A DNA stretch of 45,384 nt, taken from positions 1 through 45,384 of IMG/VR virus record IMGVR_UViG_3300022745_000005. One strand, written 5' to 3'. The DNA is from a virus. Taxonomy: Duplodnaviria; Caudoviricetes. Numbering within the stretch: the first letter of the stretch is position 1; every line of letters begins with the position of its first letter. Of the stretch, positions 14,229 to 45,255 are shown in pieces. The position numbers were made by a program, and so were the translations under genes. The notes beneath the pieces were generated by a model. The model was not told the DNA's origin. It made no database searches and saw only the letters and a list, made by a program, of their open reading frames with translations.

Positions 14229-17200
14229 CTACTGCGCCCCCATCTGGTCGTAAATGAGCTTCATAAAGGCCTTGAAGTCACCGCCGATTTTACCATTCTT
14301 CTCCCACCAGCTTTGCAGCTCGCTGTAGGCGCCGGGCCGGATGGTTTCGCCGGCGTAGCGAATGGCCTGTAACTGCGCCTGGGTGGCCGCGCTGAATTGG
14401 TTCAGGTCTACGGTGATCGGCCTCTGGTAACTCGTGCCCGCAATCGCCCCGCTCAAGCGGGCATCGCTCAAAACGAAGGAGGCAATATCAGGATTGGCTG
14501 CGGCATAGGTGCGCTGCCAGTCCCAATACTTCTTGAGCATCGATCCTTCTTGCGTCTTGAGGAAGGCCGACCGTTGCGGCGAACCTTTGGCGTAACTATA
14601 ATAGGTTTCCTCCGCGGCGCTCAAGCCTGGGAAGGTATCATCTTTCAGCGCCCGGTAGGCGTACACCTTCTGTTGTGTCGCGGCGGGCAGGCCGTATAGC
14701 TCGCTTTGTTCACTGGTAATCCAGGGGATCGCCTTCGGGTGCTGCGCCAGGAACAAGTTTTTCCAGCTATAGTACTTGTCAATCTGCGGGAACTGCTTGC
14801 GCACCTGGGCCTGTTGCTCTTGGGGCAGGTTCATGTATCCGCTCAAGACGCTGTTGACGTTGGGGAAGTACTTCTTCTGCTCGTCGTAATACTGCTGGAC
14901 AATCGCCGCATCTTCCTTGCTCGCCAGCTTGGGGTTGAGCTTCGGCGCATCCGGGGCCATGTCGGGATTGTTCCCGCCCATCGCCTGCGCCCATTGCGCC
15001 AAGGTCTGCGCGTCAATGCTGTCATAGCTGCGGGTATCCTTGCTCAAGAATGCATCCGTGAATTGCTCGCCCAACTGGTCGCGCATCTGGCGTTTATACA
15101 GGTCCGGCAACTTCATGTAATTGTCCCACACCTCGCTGATCAGGTATTGTTTTAGCCGTTGCTGCGGGTCTTTTTGCAGGCTGTCCATACGGGCCTGATA
15201 CTCGGGATAGGTGTCGAAGAACTTGGTAAAGGCCTGTTTGTCTCCGGCGATCCATTTATCCCGCGCCCTGTTGTACTCCTTCTGTAACTGGCGCTGTTCC
15301 TGCTCGCCTTCAGGGAAGAAGTCTACCCCCAACGGCGCACCCCAATACTGCCATAAGCCCATCTGACTTACGCGCTGCTGCGCCTGGGTGAAGGCGGGGC
15401 CGGTGCGGTCAATCATCGCCCTGCTCGCCTCATCCGCGCTGATGATGCCCTCGGCGGCCATGTTGGACAATACGCGGTCGACGCGGTAATCCTCGAAGCG
15501 ATCAATCGGCGGTTGGCCCGCTGCCCGCCGTAAGGGTTCCTCAATGTTGAAGCCTCGCGGTCCACCGATGCCTGCCGCCGCTGTGTTGGCCTGGATCATC
15601 TTGGCAAAAGGCGTCATTCCTATCTCGTCCTGCCTGCCTGTAACAAACTTATACGCCAGGTTCAGGGGCAGGCTCATCCCACTGACCGCCGATGCAAAGT
15701 CGATCGGGTTCTTGATATTGCCGTCAACGTCCTGCCGCGCCTGGGCTAGCGCCTGGTTCCACACGATCCCGCTGTGCTTGGCAAGCGCATCCTTGTACTC
15801 GGCGTCCGTGATCTCACCGCTCCTCGCCATCTTCGCCAGCAATCCTTCGGCGCTTTTGTTCTCCTGGTTGGTCTGGGAATAGAACTGATCCAGCGGGTTC
15901 GCCAGTTGCAGGAAGGGGAACATCGCCCGCTGTGGATCAAAGAAGATGCCCTCGCCCATCCAGTCGGGTAAGAACGGAAGCGGGATCATGGCTTTCTTCT
16001 TGAGCCGTGTCGGGTAGCCCTTGTCCTGCTGTTGGTTCAGGAAGCCCTGGAGCTTGAAGTAGTTGCTCAGAATGTACGGCTTGTCGATGAAGCGTAAGGC
16101 CCAATTGACCATCGAACGGGTATACCAGAATTCGTAGGGCATTGCCGCCATGAGGCCGGTGTCAAATCCGTAGCGCTGCTCGTAGGGCAGGAGCGCAAAG
16201 TCACGGCGAGCTGTGCCGTAGCGCAGGGTCGCGAGCTTCGCGTCTGCCATTTGTGAATAGACTGTTCCCAGATAGCGCTTGAGTTCGCGCTGTCCATCGC
16301 CGGACAGGTCGCCAAACTGGAATTTCGTCGGGCGGGTGATCGCGTCGGCGTGGGCCTGTTCGGCCTTGTCCAGCGCGGGGAGGATGTGCTTTTGATACGC
16401 CTCGAATGTCGCGTCCTGTGTCGGTGGTCCGCTCATCTGTTCGGCTGTGCCGAGTGGCAGGTTTGCGGCGGCGTTGTTCTCCACCGGCTTCTTGGTCTTG
16501 CGCATCAAGATGTTGGGGTCGTTGGGGTCGAACGTGCCACGGTTGAAGGTGGATTTGATCTGGTCGGGAGAGAAGGCAATGTAGCTATCTTCGGAGTTTG
16601 CTGCCATATGGTCTTGCCACGCCCGATATAATCTCTGCTGTTCTGCGTACCCAGGTAGCTTCTGTTCTTGAATACTTACCGAGTTTTTCGACCCGCCCTT
16701 GCTTCGCATAAACTCATCATTAGCTTTTCTCCATTCTTGAAACTTCGCAGATCCGCCTTCGCTCTCGGCCGTGTTTTTGTAAACAATGCCATCATACCCA
16801 AGATCTTGCAGATACTTTCTTGCTTGTGAGGTAGATTTCATCCTTAAGATATCACGGTATGCTTCCTCTCCAAGAACATCCTTCACACCCCAGGCAATAT
16901 TTTCGACACTCCAACTTCCAAGATCATCAAGGCGGAGCGGATTCTTGATCGAAAGATATGCAGGTAATAACCGAACGCCTTCTGGTTGAGATGAACCGAT
17001 CCCTGTCTTAAATTCGATGCGGTCATTAGCTTGCCCACTCGTACCAAAATGGATTCCGATATCACTTCTTGAAACCTTGAAAGCGTCAAACTGATTACCA
17101 GCCGTCCCATGATACACCACCAGTGGCCCGCCGTTTTCGTCCACTACCTTGCTATCACCGAACCACTCGCGGAAGGCCGGGGTTTCGGGAGATGTGGTGC

Positions 17201-20200
17201 GGAATAACACGCCAGCCCTGCTGATCTTCGCTTCCTTCGCCTTGCCCTCGAAGCCTGGGAGATCCTTGCCCGTCAGGATGTAGTAGACGTTGTTCACCTG
17301 TTCGGGGGTGGTGAACTTGTAGGTTGATCCGCTGGCCTCCACACTTACGGCTAATTCTTTGGCCTTTTCTTCCCATGCCTTGTGTTTCTTTTGATAGGTT
17401 TCCTGTGCCGTAGCACGCTTGCTAAACTCAATCTTTGAATAGTCGGGGGCCTGTGGTTCTTTGCCTAATTGTTTCGCAATGTCTTGGGTTTTGGACAGTA
17501 CCGCTTCCAGGTCGCGGGCAAACGTCGCTTTTTCCGTTGCGGTCATTCCGACCTTGCCAGCTGGCATGGTGTAATCTTTCTCAGCCCCGCCCATCGTCGA
17601 ACCCTTATAAGGTATCACCTCGTTCGCGGGGTAAGGCTGGCCGTTGACCATTGCCTCCATTTGGCCCGCGTCATTCGTGCGGAAACCGTCAACGATACCG
17701 CGCTGGTAATCACCTGCCGCGATCTGATACCAAACTTCATCACCGACTTTGTACAGCATCCCTGCGGGCGCTTCTGCGTTCTGGTAACGCGGGGTGGGGC
17801 CATCTTTTTCTATCGCTCTCTGGACTAGCTTTTCAAACTCATCCTTGCCGCCGATTTTCTTTACCCTGGCGATCAGCCCTGTGATTAGTTCGTCCTGGGT
17901 TGTGCCTGTCCCAGAAATGGCGAGTATACCTGTTCTGCCTTCATCGATATTGAGAGTCTTGCCATCCTTGACGATGAAAAAATCCATACCTTCGAGCCCT
18001 GGGACAGTCACGGGCTTACCCGCCGCCTTTTCAAATCGGAGGAATGAACCGTCAGGGTTCTGCAAGCGGATGTAGTATTCCTTGCGCACTGGCGTGGCGG
18101 TGGCCTGGGGAATTGCGCGGGGTACTGGCGCGGCGGGAGGTGGCTCAACGGGCGCGGGTTGCGTTTCCACCACCGGCGCGCGTACAGGCTCCGGCGCTTT
18201 CACCTGCGCCATGATGCCATCTATCGCGCCTTCATCTGTCGCGGCGCGTAGCATGGTTGACATGATGTTATAGGGAACGTCGCTTGTACCACTCAACACA
18301 CGCTCAGCCCTGGCGTTGTCACCCATTAGCCGATACCACCAAGACGATAACATGCGGGCCTGGGGTTCGTTTCCTCTGACCTGTGTGTATTGCGCGTCAA
18401 ATCCTGGGTGCGCTTTCTCCCATACCGCCATGTCCTTCGCGTAAAGCTGGATGTAATCGCCTTCGGTCTTTGGCGCAACGCTCGCGGGCTTTGCGTCCCA
18501 GGCGGTTGCGGGCGTGGAGGGCTCGGCCTCTACGGGGGCAGTGATAGGCTCGGGCTGTTTAGAGAGAGTTAGATATGAGTTACCTAACTCGTCCTTCTCC
18601 AATCGTGCCAATCCTTTTCTGACAACGGCCTCTTGTACCCTTCGATAAGCATCAGATACACCGCCAAAAGACTCGGTATATATGTCACCATCACGCAAGG
18701 CGGTAAGTAGCATGTTCTGCCCGTTACCCTTGCCGCGTTGTGCTTCTGGAATGGTAAACGTTGCAACTCTCCGTTGTCCGGTCTTATCCTTAGATACCAT
18801 AAGTTCAGAACCAGGAAGGTCAACGATCTTATAAATCGATACCTCGCCGGCTTTGTTATTCCTGGTATAGGAAGATACGCGATTACTCAGCGCTGTCCCA
18901 ACGGGCGGGGGCGTCTCCCCCCCCATCCACCGCTGTATCATCGCCTCAACTTCCGGCGATACCTTTACATCGATCTGACTGCCCTTGATCTTGCGATACA
19001 CCTGCGTCATCCATTGCTTGATGCGCTCGACTACGCCGTACAGCGTGTGTGTCGGCGGCAGTCCTTCCCGTAGTCCCTTCTCCACGGCGGCAGATAGCAG
19101 CTCGTAAGCCTGCGCGTGTGGGGTGGTGTACTGGCCCTTCTTGCCCGCAAGTGGAACCATGTCCTTGTTCCACGTTTCAGGCAGGTCGATGCCATGATCA
19201 TCCTTCAACCACCGGCGCACCGTAGCCGCGTCATCGACAGTCATGAAGGGGGTGATCGCGTGGGTGACTTCATGCGCAACGGTTGCGACGGCTTCCGTCC
19301 CTGTCTGGTCGTAGATGCGCACCAGGCTGTGCAGGTTGTCAGTGAAGGTGGTCACGCCGGTCACGGTGTCGGCGTGCTGGCGGGTTGCCATATCATCATC
19401 AAGACGGGTGAGGATATCAGGCGTTTCCTTGCCCGTAACAATATCCTGCGCCGTGGATAACAGATTGCGCATCCGGCTTTTGCTGTACCCGTCAAATTCA
19501 TAGGAGGCTAATTGTCTCCCGGTTTTGGGGTCGTCAATCTCAAGCCAACCGCTTTGATGCGAGAACCATTCAGAAAGAAAAGTAGCCTGATCGGCTGTGA
19601 TTGGACCTGAAATCGAGATCATACCAGACGCATAATCAATGCGGATTGCCCCAGACTTCTGCATGAAATCGTGCATGTCTATAAATTCGGGGGGCACTTC
19701 CCGATGATCTACATTCCTTTGCCCGCGCAGATAGTCTGGCTCTCCGGGCTTAGGACGATAACCCGTCTTGGTGGGTTCATACCCAGTTGCATAATGCCTA
19801 CCGGAAAGATCGAGCATCCTTCCACCAGGAGTTACATATCCTGCTTCTCGAATGTCATTGGTCGTCCCGTAGAATTTTCGGGCAATCTGCCATGCCTTCT
19901 GCGCCTCATCGCTTGGGGCATAACTGCTAAATCTATTTAGCCCTTCCTCGCCCCCAAACTGCCCGCCAAACTTCCAGCCTATGTTATTCAGCAGCTCATC
20001 TTTCGCGGCAGGATTGTAATTTTCAGCGATTGAATTTAGGAAGTCGCCCATCGCTTGCGCTTGCTCTGGGTATCTCGCCCGCATCTCACGATTGAAGGCT
20101 TCAATGCCTGCGTCAAACTGGTCGGCGTCTTCGAGTTTCGCGCCCTCGCTGTCAAAGTGATCGGCCATCGCCTCAGCCTGGGAATGGATCTCGTCCACGT

Positions 20201-23200
20201 TGGCAGTACCGGGCATCTCGCTCATGCCCGCTTCAAAGGCGGCCTCCTGAATGTCGGCGGGGGTATGTACTGCACCCGTCTTGGTGTCCACCGCCACAAG
20301 GTCGTTGTGGTTCATGTGCTGGACGATTACATCCACGTTCTCGATGTTGACCACTTCCTCAACGGTTGGCACTTCCCGGCGCGTGGCAGCATCTAGCGCG
20401 GCTTGAGTATCCCCTTTTCCACTAGCAACTGGCGCGGGACCAGCTTCCACGTTGGGGGTAGTATCCCCAGGCGTAACCTCGCGGAACTTGGTGCGGAGTC
20501 TGGCGTCGCCTGCAATTCCGGCTGTGGCTGCGGCGTGGGCTGATTGGTTGGCTGCGTCTGCGTCGGCAAAGGTTGCCCCTGCTCCGACATGGAAGTCATA
20601 TCCGGTGAAGTAGCGTTTATTCCCTGATCCATCATCTACCTCCAACACAAGTTGTTGCATCTTGTTCTTGACCGCGTTCATCATCGTTTCTGCGGTCGTC
20701 GTGTCGCCGTTCACGATCACGGCAAATTCATCGCCCCCATATCGGTAGGCGCGGTTCTCGCCTTCGCCGGATACCAGTTGCGCGGCGACTTTGAGCAAGG
20801 CATCCCCGGCAAGGTGCGATACCTCGTCATTGGTCTGCTTCATGCCCCGAATATCGAACAGAGCGAATGAGTAATCCTTGCCCGGTGTACCCTTCAATCC
20901 AGCCATGTCGATCATAAACGTGTTGCGCGTCTTGAGTCCGGTCAGTACGTCTGTCTCGGCGCTGCGCATCCGTTCAATCACGCGGGCTACGGCTTCTTCA
21001 TGCGTCATGCCCTGGTATTCTGGCTTCTGCAATTCTTCGCCAATGATGCGGCGGGCTTCCAAGTTCGCCGGGCTGCGCCGTTCTACCTGTCCGGCTGGCG
21101 GTTCTGTGGCAACGGGCGGGATTGTTTCCGGTTGTACGGTCTGCGCTGGCGGGTTACTCTCAATGTCTCTCACCGCCTGCTGTGCCTGCGTTTCCCAATT
21201 GCCCGCACCCTTAGCAATGGGCCTGCCGCCCTTGCGTTCGCGCAAGATCGTCTCAATCGCGGTCATTCGCATGACCTGATCCTCAGTCTTGGCCTTGACT
21301 TTGTTCAACGCGTTGTACCTGCGGCTCAGATCGGCTGTCTCCAGCTCGTCATACCTTGCGCCGTTGGTGTTACTGGTCACATTCGCCGCTTCGTCGATGG
21401 TCATCGAGGGCTTTGCGGGCGCGGTGACAGGTTCGGGCCGTGCTTTTGGCGCTTCGCCTGCCTGTGGCGCCTGCGGTGGACGCGTAGGCGGTACTTTGGT
21501 CGGCGGTTTGGTATCTGCTCCCCATCCAGGCGCGTTGTTGTGGCTTGCCGTGGCCTGTTCGGTGATGAAACCACGCTGGATGTTGTCGTAATACCACTTG
21601 TTGATCTGTTCGCGCTCAAATCTCTTGATAAGGTGTAGCGGTTGGCCCTGGGTGTAGCCCCGGATCAACTCCATAGATTGCGCCGGAAGCCATGACTTCA
21701 TTTCAGGGGGTAAACTACCGCCCCGGAAGAAGGTTTGGGCGGCGCCTGCCCGTCTGCGCACTTCGCGAACCGCATCCCGCCAGGCCTGGTACTCGCCTTT
21801 GGGTCGGCCTGTGGTGCGTTCGTACAATCTCGCGCCTAACTCATCGATAATGCCCTGTGCGCGGTCGGCCTCGATGATCGCCTTAGCATAGCGGTCGATG
21901 TTTCGGCGGTTGAGCGCGTCCCACTCGGCTGAACGCGCTTCCTGGGGCATGTCTTTGGGTAATGCGTTCCAGTTCTCGAACTCGTCCCGCACCTGGTCAT
22001 GGAATTCTTTCCATACCCGATGAATACCGGGCTTGTCCACATCAATTCCATTGCCCAGATAGGCGAGCATCGCCGCACTCTCGGCGTCATCCGCGCCTAA
22101 TGCCTGGTAGATGCCCAGCCATTGCGCCGCTTCCTGGTCAAAGAAGGCATTGTATACGCTGTTCTCCTGCGCTTTGAGGTTGGCCCATTTGATTGCCCGC
22201 TCCTGTTCGGTGTACTTGCCGGTTGCTAAGTCCTCAGCAACGGCGGCTGTCCTGTCAAAGTGTCCGTTGGCGGTATCGAAGGCCATCCCGTCTAGCTGAT
22301 CCACGAGGTCTTGTACGCCCTTGACGCCCTCGACGCTGGCTTTTGTCACCACCTTCTCAACTGTTTCACGGGCTTTGCGTATCGTATCCTTGCGGATGGT
22401 GTCGGCTATGTTCTTCTTAGCCTTGCCATACAGCGCGTGAACGTCCTGGGGGGTCTTTGCGGTCTTGAGATCCTTGTCAATCTGCTCCACCAGTCCGGGG
22501 AAGTGGTCGAGCATTTGAATATCGTTCTTGTCCAGCACATCCCGCACGCTGATCTTGTCCACACCATTGAACAAGGCGGCTTCAATCTCTGTCCGGCTGT
22601 GTCCGTTGGCTATCAACTGTTCGATCTTACCCACTAAGTCAGGGTTGATACCGTCCAGGTATAAGGCGAGCTGCGGATGGTTGTCGCGGATGCTATCAAA
22701 GCCGTCGCCTGCCTTCCATAGTCCATCCCAAAAAGGCCTCATTGCGTTGTGATAAGCGACTTCGGAAGCGTTCTTCTCCATCCATTGCGACAACCGCGCG
22801 AAGGCTGTTACCTTGCGGGAGAACTTAGAAAGGTTCTGGTTTGTTTTCGATAACCAATCCTTCCCCTGTCTGGCGTCGCGTATCTCCTGACCTAAACTGT
22901 AACCCTTGCGGCCTTCCTGCACCAGTTTCGCAGCTTCAATCTCGCCGCCTACTTCGCCCTGGTCCGCCGCGCTTGCACCCTTGCGGAACATGCTATCAGG
23001 GAAGCCCATGCGCGTGAACCAGCCGGCCCGTTGTCCTTGCGTGTTGATCGCAAGCAAACCGTCATACAGCAGGTGCATCTCATTCGTCAATCCGTTGGTC
23101 ATCGCAAAGGTGGGGGTATTGAGTAACACCATGCTTTGCGCCGACTTGACGAAATTGGATACCTTCTCGACCCAGCCCATCGGTTTGACGTTGAACCAGT

Positions 23201-25331
23201 CTACCGCCCACTTTTCCAGGCTTTGCGCCAATGCCTCGCCCACGTGCAGCTTGAGAAGTTCCGGCGTGAACGGTGCGCCATCCTTGCCGTAGAACAACTT
23301 GGCGGCTTCACGCAGTGGGTTATTCCCACCCTCGGCGAAGAAGTCCAGTTCTGCACCGGGTAAAATACCCGCGTCCACGTTCTCGCGGATGGTCTGCATC
23401 ACGCCACGATAAGCCCGGTCCAGTTCCGGCGCGCCCTTGGGTTCGGCAAACATGCGGATAACATCGCTCATGGTCACGGGCTTTTCCGGTGTACTCAATG
23501 CCTGCGCCATGCGCTGTATGATCTTGCGCTGCAACACCGTCTGATCGTAGGCGTCCACCACCTTGAGCGGTTCGGAGGCGGCGTCCTTCATCGCTACGGA
23601 AAGGATCGCGCCCTCACTGCTGTCAATGAACTTGGGGTAAGGCGAGCCGTCCATCTGTGCCCGCGCTTCCCCTGGTTTGGTATCGCGCAGACTCGTAAGC
23701 GCCTGCCGGATTGCGCCGGGGGCTGTCTCATCGTTGGGCAGAATCTTGAATAGCTCATCCACCCCGCTAGCCATCTTGTACGCGGCGCTGGTTGCCCTGC
23801 TTTGCGGTGTCATGCCGAACACGCGGTCTAACACACTGGCCTTATTGACCGGACTAAACTCTTTGGGTAGTCCAGCCTCGTCAATGCCCGCGACCATGCG
23901 CAAAATGGGGTGTAACCTGGACGCTTCTTCCACCGGCATTTCACGCACAAGGCGGGCGGTATTCATCAGCCCTTCATGCCCGGATGCGCTCATCGCCATG
24001 GCTTCTTCCAACGGCTTCCAGTTGAGAGCCTTACCCAACTTCCCGAGCGCCGCGACTTCTCCGCCAGGAACAAGATACATCAGGTCGAAGATGCTTTGTC
24101 CTACGAGCTGCTGCACATCGTAACGGATACCCACCTTTGCCCGTATCTCGCTCTCGATTTGCGCAAGGCTTTCCCCCGCGTCAATCCTGCGCCGCGCATC
24201 GGCAAGTAGAAAGGCTGTTGGGCTGGCTTCTTCGGGCGGGGCAATTACGTTATGGGTTGGCCCTACCTTGTTCGCTTCCCATGCGTCGATCTCGTTAGGC
24301 AAAAAGGCGACGCCATAGGTCAGCGCCCCTGCTTTGTAGGCATCGTCAATATGTTGGATGACCTCACCCACCGGACCATACTTCTCGGGATCGCGGATGC
24401 TGTTGAACAATTGGTTCAGCACGCCCATCGATTGCTCGGGGATCATTGCCGACGCACTCAGAATAGGCATGGCCTTTTGCGCCAGGTCGGCAGCCTGCGG
24501 GTTGACAAAGGTTCCATCCGGGTTCTGCTTGAAGGCTTCGCCAAAGATCGAGGCGAACAGCACGCCTATACCAGCACCCATCAAACCGCCCTTTGCCCCT
24601 GCCGCCGCGCCTTCTGCCGCGCCGCTGATAGCGCCCAAGACGCCGCCCTGAATTCCCGACTGCGCGGTCATCTGTCCACCGGGGAGGGATTGGATCGCCT
24701 TTTGCCACCACTCCAACTTATCCCATTCCGGGGCAGGCACGCCCGCTACCATATCAGCCTTCGGTGCGTTCACATCGCTAGGCGGTTGGTAGGTTTGGGC
24801 CTGCGTCTGCTGCGCACGTGCCACCTGGAAATCGAGGTAGTCGGCGGGAACCAGTACATTCCCGCCCTGTTTTGCCATCTCCGCAAGCGCATCCCGCCCG
24901 TAGGCAGATAACGCCTGATCCTCTGGAATTGGATACAGTACGTTATCCGGGCCGGCCTTGGGTGCGCCTTGCGCCGCTATGCTCTGGCTGGTCTGGGTTG
25001 GGTCTTCACCAAATATCAATTGGCTGGTGAACTGACCCATCGGAACAACGGGGTTATCCTTCTGGACATACTCCTTGGGGAGATAACTCAGGTGTTCGGC
25101 GAGGTTAGGGTCAGGGTAATTCCACTGCCGGGTATTGACGTCGGGACGGTTGAGATAGTTGATCGCCGCGCCGCTTTGAGGGCTCATGCCTGCGGGTAAG
25201 TGGCTCCAAGTGCGGAGTAGGGTATCGTTTGTTTGCGCTCCCCATCCAGTCGGACGCACAGCCCAACTCTTGCGGGCCATGTCGTCATACCATGCCTTGC
25301 TATAGGGTTCGATGGCAGGTGCGTTGCTCAA
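14229..25331 (-). CDS. Giant polyvalent, probably ejected, virion protein (3,700 aa) with GGDEF, zincin HExxH, GNAT and ART-like domains
   Basis: TTG start with GGAGG RBS; lies between portal and scaffold; motifs RYGGDEF, AHEVTH, QRGKGNG and F..WFGDSKVVDENG.PLVVYHGT. Confidence 0.85.
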   Translation of the reverse strand: MSNAPAIEPYSKAWYDDMARKSWAVRPTGWGAQTNDTLLRTWSHLPAGMSPQSGAAINYLNRPDVNTRQWNYPDPNLAEHLSYLPKEYVQKDNPVVPMGQFTSQLIFGEDPTQTSQSIAAQGAPKAGPDNVLYPIPEDQALSAYGRDALAEMAKQGGNVLVPADYLDFQVARAQQTQAQTYQPPSDVNAPKADMVAGVPAPEWDKLEWWQKAIQSLPGGQMTAQSGIQGGVLGAISGAAEGAAAGAKGGLMGAGIGVLFASIFGEAFKQNPDGTFVNPQAADLAQKAMPILSASAMIPEQSMGVLNQLFNSIRDPEKYGPVGEVIQHIDDAYKAGALTYGVAFLPNEIDAWEANKVGPTHNVIAPPEEASPTAFLLADARRRIDAGESLAQIESEIRAKVGIRYDVQQLVGQSIFDLMYLVPGGEVAALGKLGKALNWKPLEEAMAMSASGHEGLMNTARLVREMPVEEASRLHPILRMVAGIDEAGLPKEFSPVNKASVLDRVFGMTPQSRATSAAYKMASGVDELFKILPNDETAPGAIRQALTSLRDTKPGEARAQMDGSPYPKFIDSSEGAILSVAMKDAASEPLKVVDAYDQTVLQRKIIQRMAQALSTPEKPVTMSDVIRMFAEPKGAPELDRAYRGVMQTIRENVDAGILPGAELDFFAEGGNNPLREAAKLFYGKDGAPFTPELLKLHVGEALAQSLEKWAVDWFNVKPMGWVEKVSNFVKSAQSMVLLNTPTFAMTNGLTNEMHLLYDGLLAINTQGQRAGWFTRMGFPDSMFRKGASAADQGEVGGEIEAAKLVQEGRKGYSLGQEIRDARQGKDWLSKTNQNLSKFSRKVTAFARLSQWMEKNASEVAYHNAMRPFWDGLWKAGDGFDSIRDNHPQLALYLDGINPDLVGKIEQLIANGHSRTEIEAALFNGVDKISVRDVLDKNDIQMLDHFPGLVEQIDKDLKTAKTPQDVHALYGKAKKNIADTIRKDTIRKARETVEKVVTKASVEGVKGVQDLVDQLDGMAFDTANGHFDRTAAVAEDLATGKYTEQERAIKWANLKAQENSVYNAFFDQEAAQWLGIYQALGADDAESAAMLAYLGNGIDVDKPGIHRVWKEFHDQVRDEFENWNALPKDMPQEARSAEWDALNRRNIDRYAKAIIEADRAQGIIDELGARLYERTTGRPKGEYQAWRDAVREVRRRAGAAQTFFRGGSLPPEMKSWLPAQSMELIRGYTQGQPLHLIKRFEREQINKWYYDNIQRGFITEQATASHNNAPGWGADTKPPTKVPPTRPPQAPQAGEAPKARPEPVTAPAKPSMTIDEAANVTSNTNGARYDELETADLSRRYNALNKVKAKTEDQVMRMTAIETILRERKGGRPIAKGAGNWETQAQQAVRDIESNPPAQTVQPETIPPVATEPPAGQVERRSPANLEARRIIGEELQKPEYQGMTHEEAVARVIERMRSAETDVLTGLKTRNTFMIDMAGLKGTPGKDYSFALFDIRGMKQTNDEVSHLAGDALLKVAAQLVSGEGENRAYRYGGDEFAVIVNGDTTTAETMMNAVKNKMQQLVLEVDDGSGNKRYFTGYDFHVGAGATFADADAANQSAHAAATAGIAGDARLRTKFREVTPGDTTPNVEAGPAPVASGKGDTQAALDAATRREVPTVEEVVNIENVDVIVQHMNHNDLVAVDTKTGAVHTPADIQEAAFEAGMSEMPGTANVDEIHSQAEAMADHFDSEGAKLEDADQFDAGIEAFNREMRARYPEQAQAMGDFLNSIAENYNPAAKDELLNNIGWKFGGQFGGEEGLNRFSSYAPSDEAQKAWQIARKFYGTTNDIREAGYVTPGGRMLDLSGRHYATGYEPTKTGYRPKPGEPDYLRGQRNVDHREVPPEFIDMHDFMQKSGAIRIDYASGMISISGPITADQATFLSEWFSHQSGWLEIDDPKTGRQLASYEFDGYSKSRMRNLLSTAQDIVTGKETPDILTRLDDDMATRQHADTVTGVTTFTDNLHSLVRIYDQTGTEAVATVAHEVTHAITPFMTVDDAATVRRWLKDDHGIDLPETWNKDMVPLAGKKGQYTTPHAQAYELLSAAVEKGLREGLPPTHTLYGVVERIKQWMTQVYRKIKGSQIDVKVSPEVEAMIQRWMGGETPPPVGTALSNRVSSYTRNNKAGEVSIYKIVDLPGSELMVSKDKTGQRRVATFTIPEAQRGKGNGQNMLLTALRDGDIYTESFGGVSDAYRRVQEAVVRKGLARLEKDELGNSYLTLSKQPEPITAPVEAEPSTPATAWDAKPASVAPKTEGDYIQLYAKDMAVWEKAHPGFDAQYTQVRGNEPQARMLSSWWYRLMGDNARAERVLSGTSDVPYNIMSTMLRAATDEGAIDGIMAQVKAPEPVRAPVVETQPAPVEPPPAAPVPRAIPQATATPVRKEYYIRLQNPDGSFLRFEKAAGKPVTVPGLEGMDFFIVKDGKTLNIDEGRTGILAISGTGTTQDELITGLIARVKKIGGKDEFEKLVQRAIEKDGPTPRYQNAEAPAGMLYKVGDEVWYQIAAGDYQRGIVDGFRTNDAGQMEAMVNGQPYPANEVIPYKGSTMGGAEKDYTMPAGKVGMTATEKATFARDLEAVLSKTQDIAKQLGKEPQAPDYSKIEFSKRATAQETYQKKHKAWEEKAKELAVSVEASGSTYKFTTPEQVNNVYYILTGKDLPGFEGKAKEAKISRAGVLFRTTSPETPAFREWFGDSKVVDENGGPLVVYHGTAGNQFDAFKVSRSDIGIHFGTSGQANDRIEFKTGIGSSQPEGVRLLPAYLSIKNPLRLDDLGSWSVENIAWGVKDVLGEEAYRDILRMKSTSQARKYLQDLGYDGIVYKNTAESEGGSAKFQEWRKANDEFMRSKGGSKNSVSIQEQKLPGYAEQQRLYRAWQDHMAANSEDSYIAFSPDQIKSTFNRGTFDPNDPNILMRKTKKPVENNAAANLPLGTAEQMSGPPTQDATFEAYQKHILPALDKAEQAHADAITRPTKFQFGDLSGDGQRELKRYLGTVYSQMADAKLATLRYGTARRDFALLPYEQRYGFDTGLMAAMPYEFWYTRSMVNWALRFIDKPYILSNYFKLQGFLNQQQDKGYPTRLKKKAMIPLPFLPDWMGEGIFFDPQRAMFPFLQLANPLDQFYSQTNQENKSAEGLLAKMARSGEITDAEYKDALAKHSGIVWNQALAQARQDVDGNIKNPIDFASAVSGMSLPLNLAYKFVTGRQDEIGMTPFAKMIQANTAAAGIGGPRGFNIEEPLRRAAGQPPIDRFEDYRVDRVLSNMAAEGIISADEASRAMIDRTGPAFTQAQQRVSQMGLWQYWGAPLGVDFFPEGEQEQRQLQKEYNRARDKWIAGDKQAFTKFFDTYPEYQARMDSLQKDPQQRLKQYLISEVWDNYMKLPDLYKRQMRDQLGEQFTDAFLSKDTRSYDSIDAQTLAQWAQAMGGNNPDMAPDAPKLNPKLASKEDAAIVQQYYDEQKKYFPNVNSVLSGYMNLPQEQQAQVRKQFPQIDKYYSWKNLFLAQHPKAIPWITSEQSELYGLPAATQQKVYAYRALKDDTFPGLSAAEETYYSYAKGSPQRSAFLKTQEGSMLKKYWDWQRTYAAANPDIASFVLSDARLSGAIAGTSYQRPITVDLNQFSAATQAQLQAIRYAGETIRPGAYSELQSWWEKNGKIGGDFKAFMKLIYDQMGAQ
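16500..17200 (-). other. ADP-ribosyltransferase-like domain (ART-PolyVal type) within the giant protein
   Basis: PAFREWFGDSKVVDENGGPLVVYHGT, GIHFG, AYLSIKNPL, GYDGIVY, YIAFSPDQIKS..N.GTFD. Confidence 0.75.
18580..18850 (-). other. GNAT acetyltransferase-like domain within the giant protein
   Basis: VATFTIPEAQRGKGNGQNML fits the acetyl-CoA motif A (Q/RxxGxG). Confidence 0.65.
18920..19380 (-). other. Zincin metallopeptidase-like domain within the giant protein
   Basis: TVAHEVTHA (HExxH at 19260-19274), downstream YELLS..VE helix and RIKQWM.QVY. Confidence 0.65.
20530..20960 (-). other. GGDEF diguanylate cyclase domain within the giant protein
   Basis: TDVLTGL, FDIRGMKQTND, SHLAGDALL and YRYGGDEFAVI (GGDEF codons 20724-20738), in canonical order and spacing. 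Confidence 0.92.
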
Positions 25332-30943: not shown

Positions 30944-31164
30944 TTACCGGTCGCCTTGGGTCGAAACGGCTTGGGCGCATCGATGGGCGTGCTGTTGCCA
31001 AACGTGCGCAGCAAGAAAACGATGATCGCAATTGCCAATGCGATGAAGCCCTCCACGGTCAGGTTACTGGTCTTGTACCATCCCTGGACAATCTGAAGGA
31101 TACCCAGTGCAGCCAGTCCAACCATGAACAGATTGATTTTGGATTTGTAAACAGGTTTTGACAT
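30940..31164 (-). CDS. Small membrane protein (2 TM), holin candidate
   Basis: KP.YKSK N-terminus, two TM segments, LR....TP tail; GGAGG RBS. Confidence 0.65.
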   Translation of the reverse strand: MSKPVYKSKINLFMVGLAALGILQIVQGWYKTSNLTVEGFIALAIAIIVFLLRTFGNSTPIDAPKPFRPKATGK

Positions 31165-31184
31165 ACCCCTCCGAATAGTAAACG

Positions 31185-31246
31185 CCTATGTACATTTTAG
31201 CACGTTCCACCCGCAATACAATAAGGTGGATTTCGCGTAATGTCAA
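31185..31246 (-). promoter_or_regulatory. Promoter(s) for the membrane-terminase-portal operon
   Basis: TTGTAT-N16-TAAAAT with TG extension (31221..31194); also TTGACA-N17-TATTGT (31246..31218). Confidence 0.65.
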
Positions 31247-31296
31247 TTTTTGTGCAAAATAAGTCAATAAAATGCTAGTATTTATGTATGCATGTA

Positions 31297-31310
31297 TGCT
31301 ATTATATAAT
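31297..31310 (+). promoter_or_regulatory. Early rightward promoter -10 region
   Basis: TGcTATTAT overlapping TATAAT in the AT-rich divergent gap. Confidence 0.55.
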
Positions 31311-31341: not shown

Positions 31342-31509
31342 ATGAAAACCAACTTGAATTACACCCAGATCGAAGAGAACCTGATGGATAAGGGTTTTAC
31401 CCGCGAGGAAGTTGATAAGCTTACCGATTGGTGGCGGGCTGATTGGGACTGGCTCTTTGCCGCAAGCGCAGAAGAAATCCGCGCCGCTTCGGTCGATTGC
31501 CTCTCATAA
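31342..31509 (+). CDS. First early gene; small acidic hypothetical protein (55 aa)
   Basis: GAAAGGA RBS before MKTNLNY. Confidence 0.7.
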   Translation: MKTNLNYTQIEENLMDKGFTREEVDKLTDWWRADWDWLFAASAEEIRAASVDCLS

Positions 31510-31519
31510 TCGCATAGCA

Positions 31520-31569
31520 CGCGAAACCCCGCGAGGGGTCGCCGTCAAAACGGGACGGCCTGATGAGCG
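31520..31569 (+). ncRNA. Type II hammerhead ribozyme, predicted cleavage after C31540 (GUC)
   Basis: CGC-GAAA-CCCC(GCGA)GGGG-UC^-GCCGUC(AAAACGG)GACGGC-CUGAUGA-GCG: all core nucleotides and three perfectly paired stems, in an intergenic gap. Confidence 0.93.
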
Positions 31570-31583
31570 AAAAAGGAGAACCC

Positions 31584-31812: not shown

Positions 31813-32190
31813 ATGATCTCAACAATAACTCAGCATGACCTGGATTTGCACCAGAAATGGATCAATAATGAGCCTGGCGGCGTGAAACTCGTAACGGCAT
31901 ACGGAAAAATTGTTATTGGGGCCGACCTGCGCGGTTCCAACCTGAGCGATGCCGACCTGAGCCGAGCCGACCTGAGCGATGCCGACCTGATCGGGGCAGA
32001 CCTAGATTTTTCCTGCTGGCCTCTATGGTGCGGTTCCAAGGGCGTCAAAGTTGATACTCGAATCGCCGCCCAACTCGCCGCGCATTTTTGCGTACTCGAT
32101 TGCGACGATCCCGCCTATCTCGCCGCACGCGAGGCGCTGATGGAGTTTGCGAAAACCTCACACCGCGCGGGGGATTTGGGCCTAAAATAA
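31813..32190 (+). CDS. Pentapeptide repeat protein
   Basis: ADLRG-SNLSD-ADLSR-ADLSD-ADLIG-ADLDF; H.KW N-terminus; PLWCGS motif. Confidence 0.85.
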   Translation: MISTITQHDLDLHQKWINNEPGGVKLVTAYGKIVIGADLRGSNLSDADLSRADLSDADLIGADLDFSCWPLWCGSKGVKVDTRIAAQLAAHFCVLDCDDPAYLAAREALMEFAKTSHRAGDLGLK

Positions 32191-32250
32191 TTCCGGTCCG
32201 CGCCAGACTGCGCAGACCGGAACGAGGGACAACCTCACCGAGTATAGCAC
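32184..32250 (-). ncRNA. Candidate ~50-nt antisense sRNA unit: extended -10, anti-RBS hairpin, intrinsic terminator
   Basis: Minus strand GTGCTATACT, then GAGGTTGTCCCTC, then a 13-bp stem followed by TTATTTT. Confidence 0.45.
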
Positions 32251-32265
32251 GAAAGGGACAACCAA

Positions 32266-34964: not shown

Positions 34965-35240
34965 ATGGCACACAGTAAGTTACCGTGGGCGAGTTGGTTG
35001 ATTACCGCTCAGGATATTGCCGGTATTGATAGCGCCGATTGCGACGACGAAGGTATGCTGGAAGTGGCTCGCATTAGCGAGAACTCTAACCCCAACTTCG
35101 CGGATGACGCACACTTCATCGTCACGGCCTGCAACGCGCATGACGACCTTCTCGCCGCGTGCAAGGCGGCGCTGGAATTCGGACTATTGCCGGGAGTTGT
35201 TGACCAGCTCCGCGCGGCAATCGAAAAGGCGGGGGGATGA
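34965..35240 (+). CDS. Hypothetical phage protein (H...PW / A.FIV.A.N family)
   Basis: AAGGAG RBS; MAHSKLPW...DAHFIVTACNAHDDLLAAC...RAAIEKA. Confidence 0.7.
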   Translation: MAHSKLPWASWLITAQDIAGIDSADCDDEGMLEVARISENSNPNFADDAHFIVTACNAHDDLLAACKAALEFGLLPGVVDQLRAAIEKAGG

Positions 35241-35860
35241 GCGCTACGCTGATACTCGGGGATTGCCGTCATCAGCCCATAATCTGTGATGCCGTGATTA
35301 CAGATCCAGTATGGCCGAACTGCCCAGCCGATTTGTTGATAGGTCAGGAAAAACCCCAAGCTCTCCTTGCAGATGCTTTAGAAAATGTTATAGCCAAAAG
35401 GGTGGTTATTGTATTGCGCTTTGATAGCGATCCGCGTTTTTTACAAGCCGTTCCCCCTCGCTGGGGATTTTTCCGAGCTTGCATCTTGCCTTATGCGGTC
35501 CCAGGTTATATCGGCCGCAAGCTGGGAGGTATCGAGATTGCGTATTGTTTTGGAGATCCAGTTAACAGCGCTCCCGGTCGCCGTGTTATCCCCGGAATGG
35601 CCCCAAGTGTTACCAAACCAACGCCCATGAATGGACACACTACACCACGAGCAGCAAAACATTTCAGATGGCTTGTGAACTGGTTCAGCGAACCTGATGA
35701 AACTATATACGATCCTATGATGGGGAGCTGTACAACGGGAGAGGCAGCGATAATGTTGGGAAGAAATTTTATTGGTTATGAAATCAGCGAGGAATATTAT
35801 CGCATTGCCGAGCGCCGCATACGCCAGGCCGAGATGCAGGGCAGGCTGCCCGGGGTGTGA
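35237..35860 (+). CDS. DNA amino-methyltransferase (N6A/N4C, beta class) with variant catalytic motif
   Basis: LILGDC, DAVITDPVW (motif IV), H.TP, IYDPMMGSCTTG.AA...GR.FIGYEI. Confidence 0.85.
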   Translation: MSATLILGDCRHQPIICDAVITDPVWPNCPADLLIGQEKPQALLADALENVIAKRVVIVLRFDSDPRFLQAVPPRWGFFRACILPYAVPGYIGRKLGGIEIAYCFGDPVNSAPGRRVIPGMAPSVTKPTPMNGHTTPRAAKHFRWLVNWFSEPDETIYDPMMGSCTTGEAAIMLGRNFIGYEISEEYYRIAERRIRQAEMQGRLPGV

Positions 35861-41465: not shown

Positions 41466-41585
41466 ATGAAAACCTTTGACCGTATCTTTTTGACCGGCCT
41501 GTTTTTGATCCTGGCCGGCGGCTGCATTGGGCTGGCAATCGTTGGTTTCGTCGTGGGGCTGTCCTGTATGACGAGGGCTTGCTAA
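41466..41585 (+). CDS. Small membrane peptide (39 aa)
   Basis: GGAGG RBS; hydrophobic core. Confidence 0.5.
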   Translation: MKTFDRIFLTGLFLILAGGCIGLAIVGFVVGLSCMTRAC

Positions 41586-42376
41586 TGCGCCATATCGTGA
41601 GTTATTCCACCGGTCTTTCTTCAAGTCTCGCCGCCGTTCGTGTCGCTGAGCGATACGGCGCAGATCATACGCTCCTTGTATTCATGGATACCCATTTCGA
41701 GGATGAAGATAATTATCGTTTCATGCGTGAGTTTGTTTATAAAACTGGACTGGAAATACTCTATCTATCCGAGGGCCGGACACCCTATCAGGTATCACAT
41801 GCTGAGCATGTGATACCTAATTCCCGAGTTGCACCCTGCACCCACCGGCTTAAAATTGAGCCTTTCCGTGCCTGGTTGAAAACGCAATCCGAACTTATCA
41901 CAATTCACATCGGCTATGATTTTTCGGAAATGCACCGATGTGAACCAACCCGAAAAAACTATGAAAGTTTGGGCTATGCAGTTGATTTCCCCCTCTTGTG
42001 GAAACCCTACGAATTCCGCAGCTATGAAATAATCTCTCGCGAGGATTGGGGCATTGAACCGCCGCGCATGTATAAACTTGGGTATACACATGCCAATTGT
42101 GGCGGTCGTTGCGTCAAACAGGGACACGGTGACTGGCTGCGAACCCTAGTCAACTTTCCCGAACGATATGCGGAGATTGAGCGATGGGAGCGGGAAATGC
42201 GGCTAAATCCAGTAAATGCTGATTATGCTATCCTAAAACGCCAAACCAAAGAGGGAGTGACTGCGTTGACTTTGGAAGAATTACGTCTTGAATATGAGAG
42301 AAACGATATTGGAAAAATGAGCCTTTTTGATATGGATGAAAAATCGTCCTGTGTCGTTTGCGGGATTGGCGGTTAG
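41585..42376 (+). CDS. PAPS-reductase-like / PP-loop family protein with Cys cluster
   Basis: IVSYSTGLSS, FMDT..ED.D.YRF, C...LK, IG.D..E..R, PRMY.LGY.HANCGG.CVK. Confidence 0.75.
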   Translation: MRHIVSYSTGLSSSLAAVRVAERYGADHTLLVFMDTHFEDEDNYRFMREFVYKTGLEILYLSEGRTPYQVSHAEHVIPNSRVAPCTHRLKIEPFRAWLKTQSELITIHIGYDFSEMHRCEPTRKNYESLGYAVDFPLLWKPYEFRSYEIISREDWGIEPPRMYKLGYTHANCGGRCVKQGHGDWLRTLVNFPERYAEIERWEREMRLNPVNADYAILKRQTKEGVTALTLEELRLEYERNDIGKMSLFDMDEKSSCVVCGIGG

Positions 42377-42457: not shown

Positions 42458-42577
42458 ATGAAACATTTTCATTTGACCGAAGATGATCTTTGGCAATGTG
42501 TCGCACTTGTGGCGATGTTGGTTGGGGTGATCTGGTCGTGTGGGACCGCATCGATTGGGAGCGAATCGCGGAGGTGA
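42458..42577 (+). CDS. Small membrane peptide (39 aa), absent from the ORF track
   Basis: GGAGGGAG RBS; MKHFHLTEDDLWQCVALVAMLVGVIWSCG... Confidence 0.45.
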   Translation: MKHFHLTEDDLWQCVALVAMLVGVIWSCGTASIGSESRR

Positions 42578-42581
42578 TGAG

Positions 42582-42944
42582 ATGACAGACGAGATGAAAC
42601 CATGTCCGTTTTGTGAAAACAAAATAATTCTCACTCGCACCGGAGAGGGGCATACGTGTAATCGTTGCGGTTCTGTTGGTTATTGGGACTGGAACACCCG
42701 CCCTATCGAGGACCGCCTGACCCTCGCCCTTTCCGCCGCCGAAGCGGAGCGGGACGCGGCCTCTGCTAACCTCGCCGCTGCCAATACCGAGATCGTCGAT
42801 TTGTACAATGCGCTCCACGACATTGTTGCAGAAACCCTGGCCCACGACAACACGCCTTATATCGCCCTAGCAAAAATCGTGAGGCTCGCGAGTGACGCGC
42901 TGGGAGTTGATCCTGTTTGGGGAGGCGCAGCAAAAGATGAGTGA
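42582..42944 (+). CDS. Lar-family (restriction alleviation) Zn-finger fused to the shared coiled-coil module
   Basis: MKPCPFC...CNRC......WNTR; GGAGG RBS. Confidence 0.7.
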   Translation: MTDEMKPCPFCENKIILTRTGEGHTCNRCGSVGYWDWNTRPIEDRLTLALSAAEAERDAASANLAAANTEIVDLYNALHDIVAETLAHDNTPYIALAKIVRLASDALGVDPVWGGAAKDE

Positions 42945-44522: not shown

Positions 44523-44623
44523 AACGCCGCGGAATTATCTCCCCCTGGTTCGCCGTCCTGCTCGTGCTGTTCGTATGCGGCTGCCTGGCGATGGTTTGGT
44601 GGATGCAGGAGATGGCGAAATGA
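44519..44623 (+). CDS. Small membrane peptide (34 aa), absent from the ORF track
   Basis: MKRRGIISPWFAVLLVLFVCGCLAMVWWMQEMAK; ATGA coupling at both ends. Confidence 0.55.
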   Translation: MKRRGIISPWFAVLLVLFVCGCLAMVWWMQEMAK

Positions 44624-45255
44624 CAAGGCCGAGATTATTAGACTTGTTTTGCTGTCAAGGGGGAGCGGGAATGGGCTACTACCGCGCCGGTTTCGAGGTG
44701 GTTGGTATCGATATTGTTCTCCAGCCGCGCTATCCGTTTGAATTCCATCAGGCCGACGCGCTCGAATATCTGGCCGAGCATGGACACGAGTTTGATGCAA
44801 TCCACGCCAGCCCGCCATGCCAAGCCTATACCCTGGCGGGTCAACAATGGAGAGCCGAAGGGAAAGCGTATCCCGATATGATAGCGACTACGCGTGAATT
44901 ATTACTGTCAATCGGTAAGCCCTATGTGATTGAAAATGTACCCAGCGCTCCCCTTATTAATCCAACAATACTCAACGGGCTATTTTTCGGAATGAACGTT
45001 AGGCGAACACGACTATTTGAAACTAGCTTTCATATTCCGTTTATCCTGCTGCCAAAAGAAGGGGCGTCCCATTCTAAAATGGGACGCCCGCCGAAGAAGG
45101 ACGATCCCATTGTACCAGTTGGTCATTTTAGCAATATTCCCCGCGCTCGTCGTGAAATGGGCTGTGAGTGGATGAATGGTAAAGGGCTTACGCAAGCCAT
45201 CCCCCCCGCCTATACTGAATGGATCGGCGCTCGTCTGATGGAGGGGCTACGATGA
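44620..45255 (+). CDS. Short DNA (cytosine-5)-methyltransferase-like protein
   Basis: LLDLFC..GGA..G, HASPPCQ, VIENV, R.R.F and QAIPP.Y motifs; very short target-recognition region. Confidence 0.85.
   Translation: MTRPRLLDLFCCQGGAGMGYYRAGFEVVGIDIVLQPRYPFEFHQADALEYLAEHGHEFDAIHASPPCQAYTLAGQQWRAEGKAYPDMIATTRELLLSIGKPYVIENVPSAPLINPTILNGLFFGMNVRRTRLFETSFHIPFILLPKEGASHSKMGRPPKKDDPIVPVGHFSNIPRARREMGCEWMNGKGLTQAIPPAYTEWIGARLMEGLR

Follow-up and report, generated by a model that had tools for sequence, protein, structure and literature searches.

The window, by which we mean the whole stretch of DNA analyzed here (45,384 bases, a phage record that is circular and complete, its ends overlapping by 127 bases), carries a type II hammerhead motif of known kind and layout at 31520-31569, an identification that is well supported. 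It lies in the first intergenic gap of the plus strand, between a small early gene (gene 1) and the gene for an Arc-like regulator. Judged from its sequence, it would cut the transcript of these genes after C31540, splitting the message into two units, a reading to which we give a probability of roughly 0.6.

The phage and its early region

The structural and packaging genes of this phage occupy the minus strand up to 31164; from 31342 on, the plus strand carries small genes of the early and replication classes (Table 1). A promoter-like stretch can be read ahead of gene 1, at which a sigma-70 scan made no call. The gene 1 product has no Pfam or PHROG match, and a protein database search for its homologues returned gene 1 itself only. 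The Arc-like protein scores 21.7 bits with the Pfam Arc model (cut-off 20.4) and matches the FitA-like ribbon-helix-helix (RHH) domain with an E-value of 3.8e-5. The pentapeptide-repeat gene begins 1 nt past the Arc-like stop codon, and the two genes are likely to be translationally coupled. An ERF gene lies three genes beyond the pentapeptide-repeat gene; since the latter is followed by a 14-bp hairpin (z -4.3) and a 75-nt gap before the next gene, an Arc-pentapeptide message may end before ERF.

Table 1. Coordinates of the hammerhead motif, its flanks and the neighboring early genes
Feature	Position	Strand	Remark
Possible extended -10 promoter, TG-n-TATTAT overlapping TATAAT	31297..31310	+	ahead of gene 1; read from sequence
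Gene 1, 55-aa ORF	31342..31509	+	AAGGA 8 nt ahead of its ATG
4-nt stretch able to pair with 31521-24	31510..31513	+	predicted stem II competitor
5' flank G-N-A, with G(-3) and A(-1) counted from stem II	31517..31519	+	G31517: putative partner of C31551 in loop I
Stem II, 5' strand CGC	31520..31522	+	C11.1 = 31522
Core GAAA (G12 A13 A14 A15.1)	31523..31526	+	
Stem III: A31526-U31539 and four G-C pairs	31526..31539	+	GNRA-type loop GCGA
Stem III, G-C strands	31527-30 / 31535-38	+	
GUC cleavage triplet	31538-40	+	
Predicted cleavage site, C17 (31540) / G1.1 (31541)	31540..31541	+	position in consensus (PMC3088659)
Stem I, 6 bp	31541-46 / 31554-59	+	7-nt loop between the strands
Loop I AAAACGG, 7 nt	31547..31553	+	subgroup signature A2, C5, G7
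Core CUGAUGA (C3 U4 G5 A6 U7 G8 A9)	31560..31566	+	
Stem II, 3' strand GCG	31567..31569	+	G10.1 = 31567
Shine-Dalgarno-like AAGGAG of the Arc-like gene	31573..31578	+	3 nt beyond stem II
Arc-like ribbon-helix-helix protein, 75 aa	31584..31811	+	Pfam Arc PF03869
Pentapeptide-repeat protein	31813..32190	+	PF00805, E 1.6e-10

Several further features of this region and genome were recorded. The second early intergenic gap (32190-32265), which is without an Rfam match, contains the 14-bp hairpin, with a terminator-like T-rich tail on the minus strand, and a small hairpin after it. Near 32241-50 lies TG-n-TATACT, a possible antisense promoter from which an RNA of about 50 nt would result. A tandem ATGTATGC repeat at 31283-31299, immediately upstream of the possible early promoter, is a candidate operator for the Arc-like protein. 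The minus strand at 31160-31250 is likely the late promoter region, ahead of the lysis and packaging genes, with TTGACA-17-TATTGT matched at 31246-31218 and TG-n-TAAAAT near 31203-31195. The word TAGCACG occurs at 31198, 31515 and 32245, which are three of its five sites in the genome and fall inside 1.05 kb; over-representation was rejected, the total being at chance level (5 sites vs 4.1 expected). The site at 32245 resembles the ribozyme flank with a ribosome-binding site directly after it, as if the ribozyme were missing. GCGAAA is likewise repeated, at 31521 and 31567. On the minus strand, 14229-25331 encodes a polyvalent protein of 3700 aa in the virion region, with an ART-PolyVal ADP-ribosyltransferase domain (E 2e-15) and a GGDEF domain (E 5e-12), a diguanylate-cyclase-like domain being unusual for such proteins. 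A PAPS-reductase-family protein, N6/N4 and C5 DNA methyltransferases and a Lar-like protein (41579-42376, 35237-35860, 44575-45255 and 42540-42944) form a probable DNA-modification and anti-restriction set.

A type II hammerhead motif between gene 1 and the Arc-like gene

The core positions C3 U4 G5 A6 N7 G8 A9, G12 A13 A14 A15, U16 and H17 are all matched, and the three junction pairs are present as G31541-C31559 (1.1-2.1), G31567-C31522 (10.1-11.1) and A31526-U31539 (15.1-16.1), the rules being those given in the methods of Perreault et al. 2011 (PMC3088659). The topology is that of type II, with loops closing stems I and III and stem II open. A descriptor covering hammerhead types I, II and III picks out 31520-31569 as the sole match on either strand of the window; 200 dinucleotide shuffles of the window yielded one loose match and none as good. 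The first-pass annotation had read a type II hammerhead here, and we found each of its elements at the coordinates it gave; the type II identity is upheld by the core, the junction pairs, the topology and covariation in relatives, and AAGGAG does follow 3 nt after the motif. That annotation also had the motif filling the space between the two genes: it lies in that gap, of which it takes up only 50 of 74 nt, beginning 10 nt past the gene 1 stop and ending 14 nt before the Arc-like start. As for the 3-bp stem II, suspected there of being too weak, we see no strong objection, given that natural stems II of 1-2 bp have been reported (PMC3088659). The 1-bp stem II described in that paper is active when held by a pseudoknot, which is absent in the window copy. 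From its sequence, we consider the motif very probably catalytically competent.

A scan of the window with Rfam, of the kind that the first-pass annotation had proposed with hammerhead models, gives no match at gathering score. In a 1.2-kb search, RF02276 (Hammerhead_II) matches 31520-31569 over its full length with 23.8 bits (E 0.038), against a gathering score of 37 bits that is an annotation cut-off and no structural definition; the match is absent from the whole-window search listing down to E 5. Among 17 subgroup loci scanned (the subgroup is defined below), two pass the RF02276 threshold, L003 at 39.1 and L080 at 39.9 bits, and thus the window copy belongs to the known family; as most subgroup copies fall under this threshold, phage hammerheads are under-annotated. 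Matches to Guanidine-II and Mu-gpT-DE were dismissed as far below threshold, and the Rfam scans of the window revealed no other ribozyme family. Neither the descriptor nor model R1 with filters off detected a further ribozyme, degenerate ones included, in this genome, which, with its single copy, does not display the clustering of two or more ribozymes bracketing a gene.

Relatives and covariation

We define a subgroup of type II hammerheads by three features: stem I has 6 bp, loop I has 7 nt with A at position 2 and G at position 7, and one strand of stem II reads C-N-C. It comprises 38 distinct copies from 28 records, several of which are paralogues or near relatives, so that the independent lineages are fewer. 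These were assembled by several routes. A stem II-based pattern retrieved 45 viral loci, of which 37 pass the descriptor and three of those have the same 7-nt loop, and a loop pattern without any pairing demand retrieved 25 metagenome loci, of which 20 pass (one being this phage itself and another a repeat of a viral match). Further copies came from flank-based and less biased scans, one of them over 25 of 64 collection parts, and from two multi-copy records. A close-sequence pattern had no matches in viral contigs, and the six matches of the loop pattern in 185,579 bacterial and archaeal genomes were set aside as chance, none of them having the stems.

In the 38-copy alignment 99.5% of the cells are paired and 13 of 16 pairs vary in both partners, where the choice of copies for pairing inflates the former figure and not the variety of pair types. 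Two-sided changes affect all six pairs of stem I, five of six in stem III and one of three in stem II, namely the middle pair, which covaries in five copies. None of 500 shuffles reaches the observed values, and slid controls are 24-35% paired; covariation was also computed on the first 26 copies alone. The window copy is the most divergent of the subgroup. Its stem III, with 4 bp, is the shortest (5-9 bp in the other 30 of 31 copies), and its fifth stem I pair, U31545-A31555, is unique to it, the other 37 copies having G-C. Being compensated on both sides, this change points to selection on the fold of this very copy. In the DNA contigs of four other sequencing runs none spans the ribozyme, the one identical piece stopping inside it at 31535; the listed sequencing runs containing this phage include no RNA run.

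This material also bears on the notion that the motif is a chance look-alike with no RNA function. The sub-threshold Rfam score could be cited in its favor, as could the ordinary folding energy of the 50-mer (z -1.05), but the shuffled windows contained no strict match, and 37 related copies with covarying stems occur in the same gene context; we regard it as largely refuted, with next to no probability left.

Two other sets of loci stood out in the collection. L074, L076, L269 and L277-L291 form a type II subgroup of their own, in which stem II has 4 bp and loop I starts with UA; it differs both from the pseudoknot class and from the 38-copy subgroup. L293 (G005:C1:17500-25200) holds six subgroup copies in 6.3 kb, with core position 7 being C in four and loop position 5 being U in two, and thus presents a natural mutational series.

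Loop I and the upstream flank

The pseudoknot between loop I and the 3' tail (at least four pairs), found in 13 of the 17 long-loop type II copies collected, is seen in none of the 38 subgroup copies, and in the window copy the longest complement between the two is 1 bp. A Watson-Crick pseudoknot of loop I with either flank was likewise rejected. The pseudoknot is described as a majority feature rather than a requirement of type II (PMC3088659). Another known contact, that of the UNmYN loop 1, depends on a U at the start of the loop and a pyrimidine in the last position but one (Dufour et al. 2009, PMC2632901); these are present in one and two of the 38 copies, respectively, and the window loop has A first and G at position 6. 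The R...A ends around stem II are retained in 36 of 38 copies (A31570 at +1 and A31519 at -1 in the window copy).

What the subgroup does conserve is the upstream flank, with A(-1) in all 38 copies and G(-3) in 35, positions -2, -4 and -5 being variable. G(-3) accompanies a loop C5 in 31 of 31 copies, vs 12 of 109 other type II copies and four of the 41 among the latter that have a 3-bp stem II. A TAG stop codon occupies -5 to -3 in 21 of 31 copies; that G(-3) is solely a by-product of it was rejected, as the 10 copies without TAG there all retain the G. Both loop position 5 and flank position -3 were left free in the 38-copy definition, and their combinations are C/G in 34 copies and U/A, U/G, U/C and C/A in one each. 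No other loop-flank combination of positions examined pairs as well (0.95, the runner-up having 0.82). The association of the two has a Fisher p of 0.013, computed over copies that are not independent, and roughly half of the copies were retrieved by a pattern that fixed loop C5, so that the conservation of C5 is partly imposed, the flank G being free in that pattern. For a loop C5:flank G pair there are thus one compensated (U-A) and one wobble (U-G) variant, and against it two mismatches; shared ancestry could also link the two positions.

We conclude that loop I and the flank probably have a joint functional role. A direct contact of C31551 with G31517, suggested by the sequence variants, is a serious possibility at somewhat under even odds. 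Tentatively, and with slightly less conviction, we propose a third type II docking mode, in which an A-rich 7-nt loop I would grip the upstream strand via C31551:G31517, with neither a pseudoknot nor a U:A Hoogsteen pair. As that strand usually coincides with the stop codon that ends the gene before it, loop I docking would, if true, tie activity directly to the spot of ribosome termination. Failure of loops to dock can strongly slow hammerheads (PMC6155905).

Genomic context of the subgroup

Among 31 context-tested copies, three of which lie near contig ends, a stop codon lies no more than 20 nt upstream in 26, and a Shine-Dalgarno-like word with a start codon no more than 30 nt downstream in 24; both are present in 21, vs 2.2% of 6200 random positions from the same loci. 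The upstream stop codon lies at a median distance of 4.5 nt (present in 24 of 26 copies examined) and directly 2 nt from stem II in nine of 24. The other type II copies are packed between genes in like manner. The phage records G004 and G005 hold four and six copies, mostly directly between ORFs, and three other records one each.

The neighboring genes themselves are not conserved. From 21 extracted downstream proteins three near-duplicates were omitted, and of the 18 scanned one passes the Arc cut-off, three are weak RHH matches, one is an HTH protein and 13 are without an informative match; a special tie to Arc/RHH genes is accordingly only partial (4 of 18, three of these weak). No type II hammerhead was found at 32 loci of distant relatives (two terminase and 30 ERF loci, 24-55% identity), which are too distant for a test of gene order; the element is thus not bound to this gene set. 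In the short operons at L049 and L050, the junction one gene beyond that of the hammerhead has a hairpin, without an Rfam match, whose loop is able to pair with an upstream 3-4 nt stretch in a pseudoknot-like manner before the ribosome-binding site.

Such promiscuity of neighbors, together with the recurrence of near-identical copies inside genomes and the divergence of the window copy, would suit a mobile stop-spacer-RBS cassette that acts as a gene-shuffling junction, with the window copy drifting, slow or inactive and its cleavage of little importance here. We consider this quite unlikely: no core position is lost, the stem I change private to this copy is compensated on both sides, the shortened stem III is fully paired with a GNRA-type loop, and a single copy leaves no recombination partner in this genome.

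Folding and the proposed processing of the early transcript

The hammerhead core cleaves after H17, leaving a 2',3'-cyclic phosphate and a 5'-OH. In the mechanism that we propose, a transcript from the promoter-like stretch at 31297-31310 would run through gene 1 into the Arc-like gene with the hammerhead predicted to fold within it, and self-cleavage after C31540 would split it into two units that age independently, one with gene 1 and the other with the Arc-like and pentapeptide-repeat genes. The gene 1 piece would finish in stem III plus one base bearing the cyclic phosphate, and the Arc-pentapeptide piece would start with a 5'-OH on a stem I-paired base 42 nt ahead of the start codon. Type II topology places a hairpin on each product, stem I forming a blunt 5'-terminal hairpin on the downstream one; its first base pair has a predicted probability of 0.97-0.99, which supports the geometry, a hairpin at the 5'-OH end, that the first-pass annotation gave this product. 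As only the 3-bp stem II holds the pieces together, they would separate. In the absence of the usual pseudoknot, loop I may dock on the strand just upstream of stem II, possibly via C31551:G31517, although this step is less firm than the others.

There is precedent for several of these steps in the work of Perreault et al. 2011 (PMC3088659). Of 18 candidates conforming to the consensus, 14 were active; prophage hammerheads cleaved within long transcripts, in E. coli as well as in vitro; and the end of a halovirus transcript maps at most 3 nt from a hammerhead.

The predicted fold of the isolated 50-mer is exactly the hammerhead. When the native flanks are included, ViennaRNA retains stems I and III, whereas the probability of stem II drops to 0.00-0.01 owing to a possible pairing of 31510-13 with 31521-24; the competing fold has -23.2 vs -20.9 kcal/mol for the active fold. 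Stem II probabilities below 0.05 are found in 10 of 31 subgroup copies and 47 of 116 other type II copies, i.e., they are frequent in the class, because the folding model is without tertiary energy; the window copy stands at the low end.

The competing strand invites an explanation in which translation of gene 1 gates cleavage: a ribosome at the stop codon would cover 31510-13, free stem II and so release the Arc-like message. That strand begins right at the end of the stop codon and beats stem II by 2.3 kcal/mol, and the typical closeness of an upstream stop in the subgroup is of a piece with this. Yet masking the end of gene 1 (31480-31518) brings stem II to 0.13 only, 21 of 31 copies have a stem II probability of at least 0.05 unmasked, with no conserved switch visible, and in the copies with the stop 2 nt from stem II the ribosome would cover the ribozyme itself, all of which makes such gating very unlikely. 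Gating of the ribosome site by cleavage was rejected on its own account: its opening energy is 8.9 or 8.5 vs 7.8 kcal/mol in a wide-window calculation and 5.1 or 5.7 vs 5.6 in a narrow one, with shifts on cleavage of at most 1.1 kcal/mol. We infer that the purpose is RNA processing, with no switch of ribosome access.

The effect on the downstream message could have either sign. The blunt 5' hairpin would, by analogy with RiboJ, shield it from 5'-end-dependent decay, and B. subtilis mRNA is indeed stabilized by 5' hairpins (PMC3997798). On the other side, RNase J1 can degrade the 5'-OH RNA left by the glmS ribozyme (PMC3997798; bioRxiv 2023.03.12.532304), and the sign is thus host-dependent. 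As to the host, a portal protein relative in an Anaerolineales MAG, the only one of 21 portal homologues with an organism name, has 31% identity and is only a weak hint; the best cultured terminase matches, at 44% (Methanoculleus and Rhizobium phages), are uninformative on this point, and an ESM Atlas search gave Uroviricota clusters only. It could therefore be held that cleavage lowers expression in the manner of glmS, by delivering the 5'-OH product to RNase J-type decay or by freeing the gene 1 mRNA for fast 3' decay, and serves as an early-gene timer. The glmS precedent and the host-dependent sign leave room for this; nevertheless, the new 5' end is paired from its first base, and arrays of 4-6 copies ahead of many genes suit the processing of units better than the destruction of messages. 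We judge it unlikely, and on balance favor a role in processing with neutral-to-protective ends.

Comparison with known systems

Type II hammerheads are common in bacteria and prophages, and Perreault et al. 2011 reported cleavage of native polycistronic fragments and proposed processing into gene-length mRNAs (PMC3088659). The intergenic phage layout and the processing idea are hence already published, and the splitting of the gene 1/Arc message, as deduced here, is a plausible functional story that is not new. The role of phage hammerheads is still termed an open question (PMC6155905), and one further intergenic type II copy leaves it unsettled. What may be new is that a subgroup can be defined which lacks the known tertiary contacts and for which an alternative one can be tested. 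Many hammerheads show no known tertiary contact, and other contacts may exist (PMC3088659). We found no description of the loop/flank signature in the literature, mostly open-access, or in the supplements of PMC3088659 outside the Dataset S1 section on type II; published alignments may already include the subgroup. It offers a specific and cheaply testable candidate for an alternative tertiary contact, and the window copy, a 50-nt single-copy element with hairpin ends predicted for both products, a clean reporter case for stabilization vs decay.

Like the type II hammerheads of RF02276 (PMC3088659), the window copy combines the core with an open short stem II and hairpin stems I and III, and is situated between small non-conserved phage genes, the setting for which processing of polycistronic RNA was proposed. 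Unlike them, the subgroup lacks the loop I/3'-tail pseudoknot and has a fixed 6-bp stem I, an A-rich 7-nt loop and a conserved G(-3), and the window genome has a single copy. With the UNmYN/RNnA extended hammerheads (PMC2632901) it shares the 7-nt loop 1 and the R...A around stem II, whereas the reverse-Hoogsteen U:A pair as described for these cannot form in the subgroup. The Bacillus glmS ribozyme (PMC3997798) also self-cleaves ahead of a gene to leave a 5'-OH mRNA; it has another fold, is metabolite-dependent (PMC3088659), and its product is degraded by RNase J1, whereas the 5' end in the window is predicted to be paired. RiboJ (PMC6206723), which increases protein two- to tenfold, is similar in self-cleaving just 5' of a ribosome-binding site and in leaving a uniform hairpin-bearing 5' end. 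RiboJ is an engineered sTRSV ribozyme with an added hairpin, and here the hairpin would be the ribozyme's own stem I, so that the comparison is of the works-like kind only; in the same vein, docking on the upstream strand could make such a ribozyme useful as a compact insulator, with the ribosome-binding region downstream kept free.
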